Source: a virus (lineage: Duplodnaviria > Caudoviricetes). From it: a stretch of 64,000 nt of DNA. The stretch lies in IMG/VR virus record IMGVR_UViG_2873737359_000001, positions 1 through 64,000 of that record; one strand, 5' to 3'. The notes below the pieces were generated by a model. It worked only from the letters and a program-made list of their open reading frames with translations. It did no database searches and was not told the DNA's origin. Below, piece by piece: positions 3,402 to 48,319 of this stretch (positions within the stretch are counted from its first letter, which is position 1; every line of letters begins with the position of its first letter). A program made the translations under genes and the position numbers.

Positions 3402-4322
3402 CTACTCCAACAGACTGCTGTGTACATATCCGGTCTGTCCATCATAATCGACCTGTATCCAGTCACCTTCCTGCCCCTTCTTTTCAACTTCCGTTCCTGC
3501 AGAAAAGCCACCGATAACTTCACCCTCTGGATCTGCGGAAGCACGAACATTACAATCTTCTGTGACTGTAAGCATTGTTCCTGCATCTGCAGAAACACTG
3601 GCATCATCACCCAGGCCCTGAAGAAATTCTGCCAGAGAGGAATCTCCTGCCTGTGCTGCTTCATAATCAGCCTTCACTTTCGCAATAAGATCCTGAACAT
3701 CTTTCTCTGACTCCAATTTCTTCACATATGCACTGATATCTGCGTCTTCATCAGCTCCACCCTTGATCTTCAGATTTCCGTCACTGTCAGTTTCCACATA
3801 AAACTGGCTCAGCGCCGGAACCGGAGTCTCAATTCCTGTACAGATATAGTTAAAAACCACATAGACGACATACGAACCGTCCGTTAGTCCCTTCTTTGCG
3901 TAAACATCCTGTACTTCATACCCGTCAATATAATCCCTTGAATTAATCTGTGACTCATCGGCCGGTGTAAATCCGTCCTCAATTGTCTTAAGTGTTGCAA
4001 TGTCTTTTTCCCCAAAAGCTTTATAATAGCTTTGAATCAGCTCGGTTACTTCCGTGCTGGCTTTTTCCATGGTTGTCTCCGCATTCGTATCTGTCGCGGG
4101 ACTGGCGTCTTTCTTCTCGTCTGTCTCCCCATCATTTGCCGGAGAAGAAGGATCATTTTCCTGGTTACTTTGGGCTGTTTTCTGATCTTCATTGGAATTC
4201 CCCTTCTTACCTCCAACACAGGCGCGGACGCCAAAGATCAGAACAAGCACGATCACCAGAATTGCTCCGCCTAACATAAAATAGCGAAGGTTATCTGATA
4301 ACCATTCTCTGAAATCATCCAA
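3402..4322 (-). CDS. Membrane-anchored SH3b-domain protein
   Basis: TM helix; C-terminal NVR...W..V.Y.G.TGYV SH3b signature; TTG start after AAGGAGG. Confidence 0.85.
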   Translation of the reverse strand: MDDFREWLSDNLRYFMLGGAILVIVLVLIFGVRACVGGKKGNSNEDQKTAQSNQENDPSSPANDGETDEKKDASPATDTNAETTMEKASTEVTELIQSYYKAFGEKDIATLKTIEDGFTPADESQINSRDYIDGYEVQDVYAKKGLTDGSYVVYVVFNYICTGIETPVPALSQFYVETDSDGNLKIKGGADEDADISAYVKKLESEKDVQDLIAKVKADYEAAQAGDSSLAEFLQGLGDDASVSADAGTMLTVTEDCNVRASADPEGEVIGGFSAGTEVEKKGQEGDWIQVDYDGQTGYVHSSLLE

Positions 4323-41957: not shown

Positions 41958-42188
41958 TCAAGTCCTCCTCTCTTTTAGATTGGAAGATCAAGAATGCAAG
42001 TATGCAATTCTATCTCCGGATGATTGTGATCACGATATCCATCAATGAGATAATAGATAATCGCGGTTTTGTCACCCTGACATCTCTCCACTGCTTCAAG
42101 AAAACAGTGTTTCAATCCTATTTACATATCTCTTTCATTTTTATAATTTGTATAAAATTTATTATTTACAGTGTCAAAGCAAAAATAA

Positions 42189-42596
42189 TTAATCGTTTTT
42201 GATCTTGACCTTACAACCAAATTTCTCTTCGACTTCATCCATCGTAACTTCTTTTACGGTATCATCATAGATAAGCTCAAATTCTGGAAACACATCATCC
42301 ATAAAATTTTCGTCACCCCCAATAGGCATAGAACCGACTCTACGAACATCGTTAATTCTCCAAACCTTGATAATGCGATCATTTTCTTTATAACTAAATA
42401 CACAAAACCGCATATTCCCAGTTAAGCATCTGAATGTTCTGAATTTATTGATGCTTCTGTGACTTACTTTGCTGTAATACCATTTAATGAGATCTCCACG
42501 ATCAGTGTTCTTTAAAACAATACCGTAACTTCCTTTTGTAGAAAGAACAATATCGCCTGTCCGAAGATCATTCAAACACATTGTTTTCATAATCAT
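42189..42596 (-). CDS. Hypothetical phage protein
   Basis: DLRTGDIV start, KEVTM.EVE.KFG.KVKI tail. Confidence 0.75.
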   Translation of the reverse strand: MIMKTMCLNDLRTGDIVLSTKGSYGIVLKNTDRGDLIKWYYSKVSHRSINKFRTFRCLTGNMRFCVFSYKENDRIIKVWRINDVRRVGSMPIGGDENFMDDVFPEFELIYDDTVKEVTMDEVEEKFGCKVKIKND

Positions 42597-42639
42597 GCTC
42601 CTTATACATTTACTTTATTTTCTATTGTAGCGCTACAAA

Positions 42640-42712
42640 TTGGCATAGACGGAATCGAACCGTCATTATATTGATCCATGAGTCAATTATTCTACCATTG
42701 AACTATATGCCA
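42640..42712 (-). tRNA. Atypical tRNA with 8-nt anticodon loop (CUCAUGGA)
   Basis: TGGCATA/TATGCCA acceptor, ATTGA/TCAAT stem, GACGG-TTCGATT-CCGTC T arm. Confidence 0.75.
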
Positions 42713-42767
42713 AACCATTACATATACAAATGAGTGCCTAATAGAGCTTATGCAAAATATCAGGCAA

Positions 42768-42841
42768 TGGAAATTCTGGGACTCGAACCCAGGACCGACC
42801 GGTTATGAGCCGGTTGCTCTAACCAACTGAGCTAAATTTCC
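42768..42841 (-). tRNA. tRNA(CAT), probably Ile2
   Basis: GGAAATTTAGCTCAGTTGGTTAGAGC...CTCATAA; body resembles Firmicutes tRNA-Ile2. Confidence 0.9.
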
Positions 42842-42911
42842 ATGCTCTGTATATGACACACTACTATGATATATCATATACAGGAAAACACTTATTATAA
42901 ATGCAGCCTAC

Positions 42912-43342
42912 GTTTATAGTTACCACAATCCTATCATTGCTAACAACACTGATCGGTTCGACCTCATATACTACCTAATTTCACCTCACTATAAACACGT
43001 TTATTCTTTCTATTCTTTTATAACTACATTAACAGCCGTCGCTGTTTTGATCCCCACTCACTTCCTCATCCTCGTTATAAGAATATAAGCTATAAAATCA
43101 ATAAGCTGCGTAATTGATATTTCCTTATATTCCAGATACGACTACACCAAACCATATTGTTTGCCTCACCATACTTTCTCACCCTCACCTCGTCATGTAT
43201 CAAGAATACTTCAGAAATATTTTCCTTTTATATGACTACACCAAACCATATTGTTTGCCTCACCATACTACCTCACCCTCGTCATATAAAAGATCATCTA
43301 TATAAATGTATGTGCTACCAAACCCTCTACCAACCTCGCACA
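42912..43342 (-). ncRNA. Array of five structured units (stem-GAGG...GUA-stem)
   Basis: Five different outer stems with the same flanking motif; units 43135-43201 and 43225-43292 share a ~36-nt exact repeat. Confidence 0.65.
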
Positions 43343-43523
43343 GAGCCATACCCAAAGTACAGGCTGTTCCCAACTTAGTTTCATCTCATTGTAAAATTGT
43401 AATAAAATATATTACATTTGTCTGAGACTATAATGATATGCTGATCACTGCTATCTTGATCTCAAGTAGGTTAACCTTCAGATCTAAATTAATCCGTGGC
43501 CTTTAGATATCTAAAGATCTGAA

Positions 43524-43605
43524 TACGGATAATGGGACTTGAACCCATATGAGTTTCCTCCGGAGAGTTTGAGTCTCCTGCGTCTGCCTATTTCGCCATA
43601 TCCGC
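43524..43605 (-). tRNA. tRNA-Leu(CAA)
   Basis: Class II cloverleaf, GGAGA-CTCAAAC-TCTCC, A73. Confidence 0.9.
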
Positions 43606-43627
43606 TTATGATGTCTGTTTTAAGACA

Positions 43628-44356
43628 TCATATTTCATTCCATTGATCATCTGGAATATTTTTAATTACAGATTTTTTACTTGGTAACTTATATTTTATA
43701 CACCATTTTCTAACTGAATTATCAGTTACGCCATACTCTTTGGCAATACTAACAAATGAATCTTTTCTTATCTTATTTTTTAAATCTTCTCTTGATATTG
43801 GCGGTTGTTTCAAAACCACTTTTGGCTTAACTTTCCCCTTCTTGTTTATTTTCTTATTTGCCTTTAAATGTTTTTTAGAAGATTTTCCTGCATAATTTGC
43901 TGTTTGCGAATGACAATTCGGACATAAAATTTGCAAATTTTCTAATTTATTATTTGAATGTTCTCCATCAATGTGGTGTAACACCAACGTAATGTCTTTT
44001 CCATTCCAATTAGAAATGCCACAAATTTCACACTTATATTCTTTTACACCTTCATTTACTAACATTTTCAATAATCTACTAGATTGATAATTTTTATATT
44101 TTCCATCCAATACATCATTCAAAGACGCTTTTGTTTTTTTATGCGTTTTCAAAGCGCATTCTCTATATAAATTAGAACGATTTTTAGAATTTTTAGTTGT
44201 GTCTAATCCATATTCTATGATTAGCTTTTTCAAGGTTTCTGGATTAGAACCATGTCCATTAAGTCCAACTTTTCTTAACAAGTCACAATACCCATTTGAA
44301 GTATCAAGTAAATACTGTAATTCGTCTGGAGTAAAATCATATAATATACTTGCCAA
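43628..44356 (-). CDS. HNH endonuclease within the tRNA cluster
   Basis: CEICG, LHHIDG...NN...NL..LCPNCH. Confidence 0.9.
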   Translation of the reverse strand: MASILYDFTPDELQYLLDTSNGYCDLLRKVGLNGHGSNPETLKKLIIEYGLDTTKNSKNRSNLYRECALKTHKKTKASLNDVLDGKYKNYQSSRLLKMLVNEGVKEYKCEICGISNWNGKDITLVLHHIDGEHSNNKLENLQILCPNCHSQTANYAGKSSKKHLKANKKINKKGKVKPKVVLKQPPISREDLKNKIRKDSFVSIAKEYGVTDNSVRKWCIKYKLPSKKSVIKNIPDDQWNEI

Positions 44357-44357
44357 A

Positions 44358-44440
44358 CTAGGGTGGTGGGATTCGAACCCACACGGAAATCTCCAATAGA
44401 GTCAAAGTCTATTATGTCTATCCAATTCCATCACACCCCA
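44358..44440 (-). tRNA. tRNA-Gln(TTG) with long variable arm
   Basis: ATAGA-CTTTGAC-TCTAT, variable arm TGGAGATTTCCG, U1-A72, G73. Confidence 0.8.
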
Positions 44441-44443
44441 ATG

Positions 44444-44824
44444 ATTATCCACCATTTACCAGCCTTGCAGATCACTTATGGTCAAATACAACTATACCAA
44501 TAACATTTGCCAAGGATTTGATAAAATTTTATTCTTTATTATTTACTCTTTTAACTTTGATCAAAAATAAACTTTGAATTTTAAGCTTTATTACTTGACC
44601 TTTACAACTTTAAGCTTTACAGTGCATTAAGTAATATTATTTATCCATAATATGTATTATTTATAATATATTCGAATTAAAAGTTCGACCATTATTTAAA
44701 TTTTCTACCACTGTAGACCTTTCGATTTTAGAGTAGAGAGCTTCTTTTTAGCTTTATATGAGACTATGCTCTCCTGAAAGTCTAATAAGTTGTAATTTAA
44801 AGTTTTCAGTAAACAATGGATAAT
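44444..44824 (-). ncRNA. ~380-nt structured RNA candidate with heptamer-periodic AAAG tract
   Basis: Terminal ATTATCCA/TGGATAAT helix, several nested helices, no ORF. Confidence 0.65.
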
Positions 44825-44841
44825 TCTAATTTATATCAAAA

Positions 44842-45483
44842 TCAATAATTGATTTCGATTTCCGTAATTGCGTTGCTCACAGAAAGTGCTGCATCAACCT
44901 CTGATTTAAAATTTGAGATTTCTTCTTCAAGAACATTGATCTTGTCATTTACCTTGATAGGATCGAGCAGGTCGTAGGACTGAGCAGTGATAAAATCGTT
45001 ACGAGTACGATCAAACGCTTCTGCATTTACCTTTGTGTCTTTTGCGCCATACAGACCGATGACATACTGATCTGCTTTCTTCTCAAGTTCATCTCCGTTC
45101 CTAGTTTTAATAACAGCCTGAGCATTGTTAAACTGCTGTTTCATCTTTCTTAAAAGTTCTTCTTTAAGATCCATGAAGTTGTTTTTCATATCAATGGCTT
45201 CTGCAACGGTATATTCAATTCCTGTAATTGTTACCTTTGTCCTAGCATTTGAAAGAACAACTGCCGTTTTAATCGCGTTTCTGCGTGCCATAAGATCTAC
45301 AACTTTATCGTAAGATCCAGTCATCATGTTAAGATACTCATCAACTTTAATTCCATTGATCTTTTCATTAGAATGTTTATTAGCTACACAGAATACAGCT
45401 TCACTAATTGCTAAATGAATTCTATCATCGAGAATCTTAAGTTCTGAAAGTGCTTTGTGTACTGTCATCTTTTCTGTTGTCAT
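44842..45483 (-). CDS. DIP1984/septicolysin-like helical protein
   Basis: T...AL.ELK.LD.RI start, D..LS.SNA.TEI end. Confidence 0.65.
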   Translation of the reverse strand: MTTEKMTVHKALSELKILDDRIHLAISEAVFCVANKHSNEKINGIKVDEYLNMMTGSYDKVVDLMARRNAIKTAVVLSNARTKVTITGIEYTVAEAIDMKNNFMDLKEELLRKMKQQFNNAQAVIKTRNGDELEKKADQYVIGLYGAKDTKVNAEAFDRTRNDFITAQSYDLLDPIKVNDKINVLEEEISNFKSEVDAALSVSNAITEIEINY

Positions 45484-45611
45484 AACGTTTCTCCTTATAA
45501 TCTTTAAATTTTAATATGTATAAATGCTGAAACCGAACTTCACATTTATTTAAGTTTTTTATCATAACCAATACTTACAAACTGATGTCATAATCATCTC
45601 GCTACCTCCGT

Positions 45612-46709
45612 TTATACTGCATAATGTAAAGCTTTGTCCTCACATCTAATTACCTCGATATGATCTACTCCAACTGCTGCCAGTTTCGTATCATCTTCGT
45701 CTGTAACATCGTCAGCTTTAACTTCTACATATTCGCCTGGAACATAATTAATTCCACGTTTAGTATCAAATACACAATCTGCATTTCTAAAACTAACATA
45801 TATACATCCATTATCAATGTATATATAATCTTCAAATTTTTCAGATTTATCAAACAAATCAAGATATTTAAATGTCTGATTAGTTCTACCATCCTTCATA
45901 TATGTATATATCGCATATTTTACAGATGATGTATTTACGATGTTCAAATCTTTAATTGCGTTTTCAAAATCACCAGAATGATTAATTTCAAAAGCAATCG
46001 CTCTTAAGCAATCATAATTAAGAGGAACTTTTTTAGAGAAGCTAATTACTTTGGTAATTTCACCATATTTTTCTTTTGGAAGCTTATCCTGCATGTATTC
46101 TGTAATATCATCTGTGTCTGGATAATCAAATCTAAAATGATAGTGGAATCTTCCTGGACGGTTCACTAAAAAGTCACTAAGATTTCTAAGCTCATTACAT
46201 GTGATAACGAATAATTTCTTTCCGTCATATAAACCATCAAATAAAGTAAGCAGTTCCGTCTGTGGATCCGCAGCCCCATCAGGTGCTTTAATTCCTCCAA
46301 ATGTTTTATCATATTCATCAAACATTACCATCACTTCCTGATTAATAGATGCAATAAAATCAGCAATACCAGGAATATAACTATCAACAATAAGAACTGG
46401 AATGTCTCTTTTAATAGCTTCGGTAGCAAGAATTTTTGCAAATAAAGATTTTCCAATTCCCTTATCTCCAGAAAGGATCACTCCTAAATTCTTATTAAAA
46501 TAAGGAAATGCATTAAGAACTTTGTTTGCCTTACTCATATGAATCCCATAGATTTTATTTTCTCTTACAACAATATCCGTGTGTTTATCAAGAAAAAATC
46601 CAGAGCTTTTTGAAAACGATACTGAATATGCTTGAGCCGGAAGTTTGTCAAATACTTCGAGTTCATCATTATAAGCTTGGTATGTAGTTCCAATTTTAAT
46701 TACTTTCAT
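45612..46709 (-). CDS. AAA+ ATPase
   Basis: GDKGIGKS, FDEYDK, NRPGRF. Confidence 0.9.
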   Translation of the reverse strand: MKVIKIGTTYQAYNDELEVFDKLPAQAYSVSFSKSSGFFLDKHTDIVVRENKIYGIHMSKANKVLNAFPYFNKNLGVILSGDKGIGKSLFAKILATEAIKRDIPVLIVDSYIPGIADFIASINQEVMVMFDEYDKTFGGIKAPDGAADPQTELLTLFDGLYDGKKLFVITCNELRNLSDFLVNRPGRFHYHFRFDYPDTDDITEYMQDKLPKEKYGEITKVISFSKKVPLNYDCLRAIAFEINHSGDFENAIKDLNIVNTSSVKYAIYTYMKDGRTNQTFKYLDLFDKSEKFEDYIYIDNGCIYVSFRNADCVFDTKRGINYVPGEYVEVKADDVTDEDDTKLAAVGVDHIEVIRCEDKALHYAV

Positions 46710-46740
46710 GTTTCTTCTCCTTTATTTTTCATTATATAAA

Positions 46741-46811
46741 CGGCCATGGAAGGATTCGAACCTTCTCCACGATAATCAAAGTATCGTGTGCTGCCATTAC
46801 ACCACAAGGCT
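46741..46811 (-). tRNA. tRNA-Gln(TTG), imperfect acceptor stem
   Basis: CGATA-CTTTGAT-TATCG, GAAGG-TTCGAAT-CCTTC; two acceptor mismatches. Confidence 0.75.
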
Positions 46812-46978
46812 GCATTTATTATCAAATTTATTATTGATAGTTTCAAGATATTTTTTTTGTTACCTACAAGATATTTCTATCTCATAGGTAACATTTTTAA
46901 TTTTGTATGTTTATACAAAATTTATTATTGATAGTTTCGAGACATTTTAAAAATTGCCTCTCGCTTGACTGTATATGT

Positions 46979-47029
46979 ATTATAGCACATCTATATAACT
47001 ATGTCAACATCAAATTTATTTTTAACAAT
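46979..47029 (-). promoter_or_regulatory. Consensus sigmaA promoter with operators
   Basis: Operator 47012-47029, 4 bp, TTGACA-17-TATAAT with extended TG; further operators at 46918 and 46824. Confidence 0.85.
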
Positions 47030-47051
47030 ATAAAGTTTTAAGAAGCATTTT

Positions 47052-47543
47052 TTACTTATATAACTGATACTTTTTGCTTATAGTATGTGCAATATCATCT
47101 GGAAGCGGACGAAACCATATTCCAACAATAGTAGTTCCGTTCTCCTCTTCTGGTTTCAACTCTGTAAAACAACAATCCGCAATAATACCATAATCTCTGC
47201 CTTCAATAAGCCCTAGATCATTCGCAATATCTTTTGCTTTAAGTAGTTTGTTCTTATTCTTTGCTTCGCATACTGTTTTTACAAAATTTCCGTCAATATA
47301 CTGTTCATATTCCTCTTTTGGAATATATACAGTAGACTTGTAATGCGTAATATCATCAGAATCCGCCGGGACTTCCCTTACAGGAAGCCCTATAGCATTG
47401 AAATTCATCTCGATCGGAGTAACAGGCTTGATCAATCTTGTATAATATGCCTCCACACAATGCATCAACATTGCAGACAATTTGCCTGGACTTAGGTTAA
47501 GATCTTTTCTTATTATAAATAATCTTCTATATCCCATAAACAT
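47052..47543 (-). CDS. Peptidyl-tRNA hydrolase Pth2-like
   Basis: IIRKDL.LS.GKL.A...H, K.VC, I.D...TE, T.VG...P. Confidence 0.8.
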   Translation of the reverse strand: MFMGYRRLFIIRKDLNLSPGKLSAMLMHCVEAYYTRLIKPVTPIEMNFNAIGLPVREVPADSDDITHYKSTVYIPKEEYEQYIDGNFVKTVCEAKNKNKLLKAKDIANDLGLIEGRDYGIIADCCFTELKPEEENGTTIVGIWFRPLPDDIAHTISKKYQLYK

Positions 47544-47546
47544 ACC

Positions 47547-47894
47547 TCAACGTTTCTTCTCATCAGAATCATTTACAATCTGATCAATCTTATCAACAAT
47601 ATAATCCACTACATCTTTACTTGACTTGCCAATTTAGTCAATGTTATCCGAAGTAAGCTGATCCACTACAGCAATCGTATATATAGTTTCTTTTGATGGC
47701 ATTAATGCAGCAGATATACCAAAAATTATAAAAATAATTCCAAATATAATTACAATTTTATCTACTTTCTCTTCATCGAGAAAACGAGATGCTGCAACTA
47801 TAAAAGTAAATATAGCGATCAATACACATATATTCTGTATATTTTTTGATATTCCAGCAAAATATATCAACCATGGATTAATAATTGGCTCCAT
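47547..47894 (-). pseudogene. Membrane protein paralogue of 13365-13787 with in-frame TAA
   Basis: LTSDNID*IGKSSKDVVDYIVDKIDQIVN aligns with LTTDNIQAIGKTGKDVIDYVSDQIDKIVN. Confidence 0.8.
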
Positions 47895-47905
47895 AATTAT
47901 ACCTC

Positions 47906-48319
47906 TTATTTCGCTTTAGATTCCACTTCACTTGCAATCTTCTTAACAACAAGACGTTTCGCAGCTAGTCTTAGACCAAATTCTAAATCAAATTTATCTC
48001 CTTCTTCTTCATTACAGGATGCCATAGCACTTAATGCACCTGATCTAACCTGTACTCGCTTTCCATTATGTCGATACTCAAATTTCAAATCTTTTTTACT
48101 TTTAGAAAACGGATCAACATAATAGTAATACGCAACTTTCCAGACAGACCATTTCGGCTTCTTAAGATTTTTCTTCTCAACCTTGATATCATCAGATACC
48201 AAAAGCGTACAAATTTCCGTTAGAATTTTTGCAATATCTTCTTCAAATGCAGCAGCCATCACATCTGAAAATTTCATATCACCCAATGCCTGAACTCTAT
48301 CAATTTTACTTTCAACCAT
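47906..48319 (-). CDS. Hypothetical phage protein
   Basis: ASC...DKFD.EFGL.LA..R tail. Confidence 0.7.
   Translation of the reverse strand: MVESKIDRVQALGDMKFSDVMAAAFEEDIAKILTEICTLLVSDDIKVEKKNLKKPKWSVWKVAYYYYVDPFSKSKKDLKFEYRHNGKRVQVRSGALSAMASCNEEEGDKFDLEFGLRLAAKRLVVKKIASEVESKAK

Follow-up and report, generated by a model that had tools for sequence, protein, structure and literature searches.

A conserved structured RNA that contains RAGATH-27 is closely linked to a helical protein gene in phage tRNA islands

The stretch of DNA analyzed here (the window; 64,000 nucleotides [nt]) covers positions 1 to 64,000 of IMG/VR virus record IMGVR_UViG_2873737359_000001 (Caudoviricetes); it is part of a 3.7-Mb bacterial genome and therefore a prophage. 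On its minus strand, the listing of open reading frames (ORFs) places a gene for a protein of 213 amino acids (aa), and 17 nt past the stop codon begins an RNA of ~381 nt that is conserved, structured, and strand-specific. Spacer and length agree with an earlier note made from the sequence alone, which had given ~380 nt, and no ORF of at least 40 aa lies on the RNA strand within the structured stretch, also as that note had claimed. The 5' quarter of the RNA is already catalogued as RAGATH-27. We tentatively read gene and RNA as a conserved two-part phage module whose products form a ribonucleoprotein. The module and the catalogued part of the RNA are located as follows.

44842-45483, minus strand: gene for the 213-aa helical protein, PHROG 1491 (phrog_1491 profile)
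44444-44824, minus strand: whole structured RNA, ~381 nt, with an arm of its closing helix at either end; kept in all relatives
44735-44820, minus strand: match to RAGATH-27 (RF03100), scoring 92.9 bits (gathering score, 76.1) over model positions 1-86, its full length

Gene and RNA are found together whichever of the two is used as the starting point. All 36 loci collected through the protein (35 from a scan of IMG/VR and one GenBank phage, Dulem virus 39) carry the RNA as judged by profiles of its 5' and 3' parts; the earlier note had held that its proposal would fail if homologous genes lacked a similar downstream element. Conversely, a pattern scan of IMG/VR for the RNA gave 35 loci confirmed by a profile of the 3' domain, and 31 of the 32 with sufficient upstream DNA have the protein gene. 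The two lie on the same strand and are separated by 4-41 nt, or by 280 nt where a small ORF intervenes; this ORF, of 90 aa, is found in one GC-rich clade. The one copy that lacks the gene (locus L087, 1159-1338) consists of the 3' domain alone, in which the 3' arm of the closing helix has lost its partner; it follows a tRNA immediately, has no protein gene upstream, and is probably a recombination remnant. Across relatives the RNA spans 310-480 nt, with 250-480 nt as the widest range.

Among 399 scored species genomes of the class, three have the protein gene. In the two other genomes, homologs 30-36% identical are each followed by a divergent RNA, which sequence profiles of the RNA do not detect and which shares the closing helix, the GAAAAC strand, the long-range helix, and the AAAUCC-stem-GGCUG end. 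One of these genomes, G233, has three tandem paralogs of the protein gene, two of which are followed by such an RNA. When whole genomes were scanned with the RNA pattern only, 2 of 119 stretches were true among the matches listed, which were mostly chance. That each is almost always found with the other, even where the proteins share only 30% identity, is an argument for joint function of protein and RNA. Three other genes were considered as a conserved third member and rejected: an AAA ATPase gene is present at only 4 of 23 loci, in no fixed position, and PTH2 and HNH genes are not consistently linked. Therefore, the unit is the gene plus the RNA.

The structure of the RNA was tested with 54 base pairs over a MAFFT alignment of 24 nonredundant full-length RNAs, to which the pairing figures and counts of relatives below refer. 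Its elements are the following.

44808-44824, minus strand: 5' arm of the closing helix, P1; 92.6% of cells paired, 15 of 17 pairs changed on both sides
44444-44460, minus strand: 3' arm of P1, with the same statistics; many G-U pairs
44795-44807, minus strand: conserved joining strand GAAAAC..UAAA; G24, A25, A26, and A27 invariant in the 24 sequences
44788-44794, minus strand: 5' strand of the long-range pseudoknot, UACAACU, pairing with 44487-44493
44487-44493, minus strand: 3' strand of the long-range pseudoknot, AGUUGUA, in the 3' hairpin loop, pairing with 44788-44794
44758-44786, minus strand: stem S1 of the H-type pseudoknot, AUUAGACU (44779-44786) with AGUCUCAU (44758-44765), from the covariation test
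44735-44774, minus strand: hairpin S2, GGAGAGC/GCUCUCU, the Rfam consensus hairpin
44619-44714, minus strand: helix P2, ACAGUG (44709-44714) with CACUGU (44619-44624), enclosing a variable insertion domain, from the alignment of relatives
44516-44618, minus strand: unpaired tract of 12-13 heptads AAAGNYY, from periodicity and consensus fold
44463-44515, minus strand: 3' hairpin domain, CCUUG (44511-44515) with CAAGG (44463-44467); 100% of cells paired

Over the 54 pairs, 84.5% of alignment cells can pair, versus 35-45% when partners are slid by 1-3 columns; 45 pairs show changes on both sides, and none of 500 shuffles reaches any of these measures. Covariation is seen in the closing helix, the H-type pseudoknot, the long-range pseudoknot, and the CCUUG/CAAGG stem. 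In P1, ATTATCCATTGTTTACT (44824-44808) pairs with GGTAAATGGTGGATAAT (44460-44444) through 17 contiguous pairs, several of them G-U, and the sequences of the arms differ in every clade. The minimum-energy fold of the 400-nt stretch recovers the same helix (z = -2.25), which stands as it was originally described; as had been foreseen for DNA downstream of homologous genes, the closing helix and the 7-nt periodicity recur there and the helix covaries. The RNA is read from the minus strand because its many G-U pairs would turn into A-C mismatches if the opposite strand were transcribed. The long-range helix UACAACU/AGUUGUA, suggested by RNAalifold, is paired in 96.4% of cells with 6 of 7 pairs changed on both sides; because it crosses the CCUUG/CAAGG stem, it forms a pseudoknot. 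Two distant variants, L277 and L279, retain the GAAAAC joining strand and have counterparts of this helix that can be found by eye (UCAUC/GGUGA and CCGGUU/AACCGG, respectively).

Near the 5' end, AUUAGACU pairs with AGUCUCAT (as RNA, AGUCUCAU) to form S1, with 83.3% of cells paired and 7 of 8 pairs changed on both sides. The loop of S2 contains the 3' strand of S1 and an A-rich strand, and S1 and S2 together make an H-type pseudoknot with one U-rich and one A-rich loop. S2 is only 57% paired in the MAFFT alignment because stem lengths differ between sequences; its core, GAGAGC/GCTCTC, had been noticed before and is the RAGATH-27 hairpin of Rfam. The previously described CCTTG/CAAGG helix is likewise real, being paired in 24 of 24 relatives with two covarying pairs (UA/AU/CG) and followed by a conserved GCUG. 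Three further helices of the earlier note fared less well. For ACAGTG/CACTGT, ACAG..CUGU closes the variable domain in ~15 of 24 relatives, not all, with a compensated extension in ~8; CAAATG/TATTTG pairs in 55.9% of cells, no better than shuffles; and AGACTTTC/GAAAGGTCT, which competes with a covarying pseudoknot, is present only in the window and its 98% relative.

The match to RF03100 is full-length and exceeds the gathering threshold of the covariance model. The first 86 nt thus correspond to a described motif, contrary to the initial view that the layout belonged to no described system, and the remainder of the RNA matches no Rfam 15 family at E ≤ 1. Rfam types RF03100 as a small RNA of unknown function and models it as a single hairpin after 46 conserved positions that have no assigned structure. 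Here, this flank forms the closing helix, the long-range pseudoknot, and the H-type pseudoknot, and the full RNA is four to five times the length of the model. The closest relatives (L002, L004, L036, and L038) also match RF03100, and the model misses the clades of L005, L012, L015, L023, L028, L044, and L053. RAGATH motifs were reportedly introduced in PMC5737381, the main text of which does not treat RAGATH-27, and we found no discussion of it elsewhere in the literature searched. Rfam 15 and the literature searched gave us no record of the full RNA, its two pseudoknots, the heptad tract, the variable domain that bears tRNAs, or the obligate gene partner. An orphan motif thereby becomes the 5' quarter of a much larger RNA. 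In Dulem virus 39 (L036, PP511791.1), GenBank annotates two short hypothetical proteins inside the RNA (L036 3657-3767, plus strand, and 3870-3983, minus strand); these are probably miscalls because the RNA structure covaries.

The most regular part of the RNA is the tract of heptads, which consists of seven units, a U-rich linker that follows a conserved AAAGUUU, and then five or six units, the last of which run into AAAAUCC and the 3' stem. In the 24 sequences, heptads follow the pattern A-A-A-G-N-Y-Y with positions 1-3 near-invariant and spacers variable and purine-poor. The lag-7 autocorrelation of A in the tract of the window is 0.385, which none of 5,000 shuffles reaches, and on both strands of the 64 kb the best 103-nt windows for this signal all fall at the 44516-44618 locus. 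Across the family, the autocorrelation of the A fraction per column is 0.70 at lag 7, 0.49 at lag 14, and 0.36 at lag 21. The RNAalifold consensus leaves the tract unpaired, and a hairpin joining the two blocks of heptads was rejected, with the best antiparallel register reaching at most 47% pairing, which is background. The 3' domain has a length of 184-190 nt in nearly all clades. The phased tract first seen in the window thus has a conserved 7-nt period, ~12-13 heptads, and a consensus without pairing, and it is the best candidate for a platform that would hold several copies of a protein.

Regular repeats have other uses, and two of them were weighed. Regularly spaced repeats in AT-rich noncoding DNA can serve as iterons, and if the heptads were iterons of an origin or packaging site, the RNA helices would be incidental. 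This explanation is hardly credible because compensatory changes keep pairing through G-U pairs, which function on one strand only, the 7-bp period does not fit the DNA helical repeat, and the tract is always enclosed by covarying RNA helices and shares its strand with the gene and the tRNAs. Alternatively, the AAAG repeats could act as a sponge or decoy that titrates a host RNA-binding protein or a nuclease of A-rich single strands, while the phage protein loads, protects, or targets the RNA through its core. The CsrB/RsmZ and CrcZ sponges are built in this way, with a structured scaffold that displays many short identical motifs on unpaired sequence; the heptads are specific to clades and the core universal, as expected if the tract follows a host target, and the setting among RNA-repair and tRNA genes would suit such a role. 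However, we know of no host protein of Clostridia that binds AAAG at a 7-nt spacing, and the strict phase and fixed number of repeats point to an ordered oligomer rather than independent sites. We consider a sponge unlikely.

The protein matches phrog_1491 with E 7.4e-54 (residues 3-212 on positions 2-210 of the 211 of the profile). Its PHROG label, 'tail fiber protein', was set aside as not supported by the neighborhood of the gene. More than 3,800 homologs exist, all named hypothetical, and neither Pfam nor NCBIfam has a family for the protein at E ≤ 0.01. The AlphaFold2 model (predicted local distance difference test score of 83.5) shows helices in a long bundle and a small sheet, and invariant residues of the family in or beside the predicted strands include K36, H37, E90, Y91, T92, D174, and P175. 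A fold search in the ESM Atlas gives phage clusters of unknown function, among them DUF7873, with a template modeling (TM) score of 0.56 over 170 residues.

The earlier note had called the gene DIP1984-like, and this label was dropped. Searches of Pfam, NCBIfam, PDB sequences, and PDB profiles found no DIP1984/DUF6847 relative, and the family, DUF6847 (PF20935), which we take to correspond to DIP1984, is absent from the listed weak hits of 24 members of the protein family (E ≤ 10). The PF20935 profile itself finds nothing in the entire genome at E ≤ 10. A DUF6847 cluster reaches a TM score of 0.28 over 72 residues in the ESM Atlas fold search, and a DUF6847-bearing cluster scored 0.87 in the feature search of the same resource, a value to be read as a lead only.

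The module lies in a tRNA island. Two features of its surroundings bear on how the RNA could be made.

44357-44441, minus strand: tRNA-Gln(UUG), 85 nt (ARAGORN; Rfam tRNA, 50.4 bits)
46979-47007, minus strand: sigma-70 promoter, TTGACA-17-TATAAT with an extended -10 TG, 12 of 12 consensus matches (sequence match)

The RNA adjoins this tRNA-Gln as originally reported, with a gap of 2 nt rather than 3; an HNH endonuclease ORF comes after it, giving the order 213-aa gene, RNA, tRNA-Gln, and HNH. Downstream of the promoter is a co-oriented run of tRNA-Gln, AAA ATPase, the 213-aa gene, the RNA, and tRNA, and the same promoter scan gave no comparable sigma-70 site immediately 5' of the RNA. The promoter could drive the transcript that carries the module and is its likely start. 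In a gut metatranscriptome, a single contig of 181 nt at a depth of 14.5 spans only 44449-44626, within the 3' domain, which is a weak hint of expression; contigs of RNA libraries are otherwise sparse and uninformative on this point.

Arrays of tRNA genes flank the module on both sides in the window and in most relatives, and at several loci tRNAs end ~40 nt upstream of the protein gene. Of the 24 representatives, 16 have a tRNA that begins no more than 600 nt from the end of the RNA, for 7 of them the distance is at most 10 nt, and the other 8 lack a tRNA over that range of 600 nt. Release of the 3' end of the RNA by RNase P, as the earlier note proposed, is therefore plausible in the window and not universal. 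The middle domain of the RNA varies in length and sequence over the 24-sequence alignment. In L055 (~170-270) and L085 (~1530-1640), this variable domain is a permuted, acceptor-capped tRNA-like cloverleaf, with a T arm, a loop-capped acceptor stem, a D arm, and an 'anticodon' stem leading into the host RNA. In L279 (G233), a complete tRNA-Asn(GUU) at 1300-1375 is nested in a divergent RNA without the heptad tract. Neighbors of the module include genes for a Pnkp-RNA ligase fusion, RtcB, PTH2, and PhoH. It is only this context that suggests a role in the biology of tRNA, translation, or RNA repair.

Position directly after a gene is also what would be seen of a cis-acting 3' untranslated region that stabilizes or autoregulates the upstream mRNA, as an operator for its own product or a block to 3' exonucleases, with no function in trans. 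The RNA begins 4-41 nt past a stop codon, no promoter of its own was found by the scan, and T4 gene 32 is autoregulated through a pseudoknot plus an A/U-rich repeat tract. But 300-480 nt with two covarying pseudoknots, a tract of fixed length, and a domain that holds tRNAs exceed what a stabilizer needs, the 90-aa ORF splits gene from RNA in one clade without loss of the RNA, and operators normally overlap a ribosome-binding site rather than follow a stop codon. A purely cis-acting role is thus quite improbable.

If the module forms a ribonucleoprotein, as we tentatively favor, gene and RNA would be made as one transcript from the operon of the tRNA island, with RNase P setting the 3' end of the RNA where a tRNA abuts. 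The protein would then bind the RNA, several copies could line up along the phased AAAG sites, and the folded core might serve as nucleation point and ruler for the array. The resulting particle would act on tRNA, translation, or RNA repair during infection. A precedent for a protein and an adjacent RNA working together is RAGATH-18, which lies 3' of a TnpB gene and was found to serve as the guide RNA of the encoded protein (PMC11061315). We also entertain, as a long shot, a more specific particle: about a dozen protein copies polymerized along a single-stranded AAAG ruler, with one copy on each heptad and the double-pseudoknot RNA as scaffold, akin to a sequence-specific mini-nucleocapsid or a TRAP-like assembly. 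Some scaffolds would present a tRNA or tRNA mimic, and in a tRNA island such a particle could shield or redirect tRNAs or ribosomes when host anticodon nucleases or other defenses that target RNA are at work.

Several observations weigh against a ribonucleoprotein of this kind. The protein family is mildly acidic (isoelectric point of 5.0-6.2), Pfam and NCBIfam searches recognize no RNA-binding domain in it, and fold searches of the PDB (Foldseek and VIA-align) give only generic helical bundles, with a best Z of 9.6. The heptads are not universal: G233 keeps the gene-RNA pair with no heptad periodicity (lag-7 autocorrelation of -0.16), and in L277 the periodicity is weak (0.17). Since G233 lacks heptads, binding by the candidate protein may target the conserved core instead. 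Only 7 of 24 representatives have a tRNA immediately next to the RNA, and the single metatranscriptome contig is not proof of transcription.

Some of these points fit an RNA-only machine in the manner of ROOL and GOLLD, a homo-oligomer or ribozyme without a stably bound protein, in which the gene would encode a pathway partner or transient chaperone and the heptads would contact RNA or tRNA. ROOL and GOLLD are RNAs of phages and prophages that occur near tRNA islands, contain several pseudoknots, are divided into a conserved and a variable half, and sometimes hold tRNAs in the variable linker; for ROOL, no protein partner has been identified (10.1101/2024.12.08.627333). The present RNA shares the phage or prophage location near tRNA islands, the pseudoknots with a conserved and a variable half, and the nested tRNAs; its protein is acidic and has no RNA-binding domain, and one variant retains a folded core without heptads. 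In contrast to ROOL and GOLLD, which have no fixed protein-gene neighbor, it is smaller and has a strictly linked protein gene, with linkage near-absolute down to 30% identity, and a long unpaired heptad tract. At E ≤ 1, neither the Rfam covariance models of ROOL and GOLLD nor any ribozyme model finds a match in 42000-48000, and a tract that stays unpaired and in conserved phase over 100 nt is more usual for a protein platform. We take an RNA-only machine seriously as a possibility, though we lean against it.

Other known systems resemble the proposed ribonucleoprotein in part. Y RNA and YrlA are noncoding RNAs with genes beside that of Ro60 (Rsr), often in RNA-repair operons with RtcB. As in the present module, the gene of the protein partner adjoins, the two ends of the RNA pair to form a long stem, and RNA-repair genes are nearby; the acceptor-capped cloverleaf of L055 and L085 also resembles the tRNA mimic of YrlA-type RNAs. 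However, Y RNAs have neither a heptad tract nor a double pseudoknot. The 213-aa protein lacks a TROVE/vWA domain, none of the neighbors tested is Ro60, and the Rfam models of Y RNA and YrlA have no match at E ≤ 1. Regularly spaced short motifs, bound cooperatively or by an oligomer, occur in the trp leader bound by TRAP, in the T4 gp32 operator, which combines its pseudoknot and repeat tract with a site size of ~7 nt, and in CsrB/CrcZ. The heptad tract resembles these in its many short identical motifs, regular spacing, and unpaired stretch but differs in the AAAG motif, the 7-nt period, the position after a gene and within a closed scaffold of two pseudoknots, and the fold of the protein, and none is homologous.

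The right-end RNA (reRNA) of IS607 TnpB is similar in that the RAGATH-18 motif is located just 3' of a protein gene, but TnpB is an RNA-guided nuclease and its RNA has a guide (PMC11061315). The 213-aa protein, a small helical bundle, has no nuclease domain, and in its RNA no end was seen that varies as a guide would. A type III toxin-antitoxin system like ToxIN was rejected because it has an endoribonuclease toxin gene preceded by tandem repeats of 30-45 nt, whereas the 7-nt repeats here are downstream, and Pfam and NCBIfam find no nuclease domain in the 213-aa protein.

Large, elaborately folded RNAs of unknown function are rare in bacteria and phages, and ROOL, GOLLD, and OLE recently proved to be unexpected assemblies. 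The RNA described here would be a third class of large RNA for phage tRNA islands, the biology of which is poorly understood, and the protein family has thousands of members in phages of gut Clostridia. Having a clear candidate partner makes the biochemistry straightforward, and a phased tract of 12-13 sites predicts a defined stoichiometry that can be checked.

A few features of the surroundings merit mention in their own right. In two clades of relatives, another orphan motif, RAGATH-36 (RF03104), is located 1.1-1.5 kb upstream of the protein gene (L005 1783-1911 and L015 1403-1559, with scores of 151 and 133 bits). ORFs of ~730 aa lie 1-2 kb downstream of the module in L044 (7048-9240) and L059 (501-2684, minus strand); that of L044 is a polynucleotide kinase-phosphatase/RNA ligase fusion (phrog_8238, E 1e-221), and that of L059, similar in size, is a candidate for another. 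In Dulem virus 39, RtcB is encoded downstream of the module. The tRNA-Gln(UUG) at 44357-44441 (minus strand) has an 85-nt body with a long variable arm, and a second tRNA-Gln(UUG), at 46740-46812, is of ordinary length. Lastly, ARAGORN assigns a four-base anticodon (catg) to the tRNA at 42639-42713 (minus strand), which scores 63 bits with the Rfam tRNA model and has an additional base in the anticodon loop.

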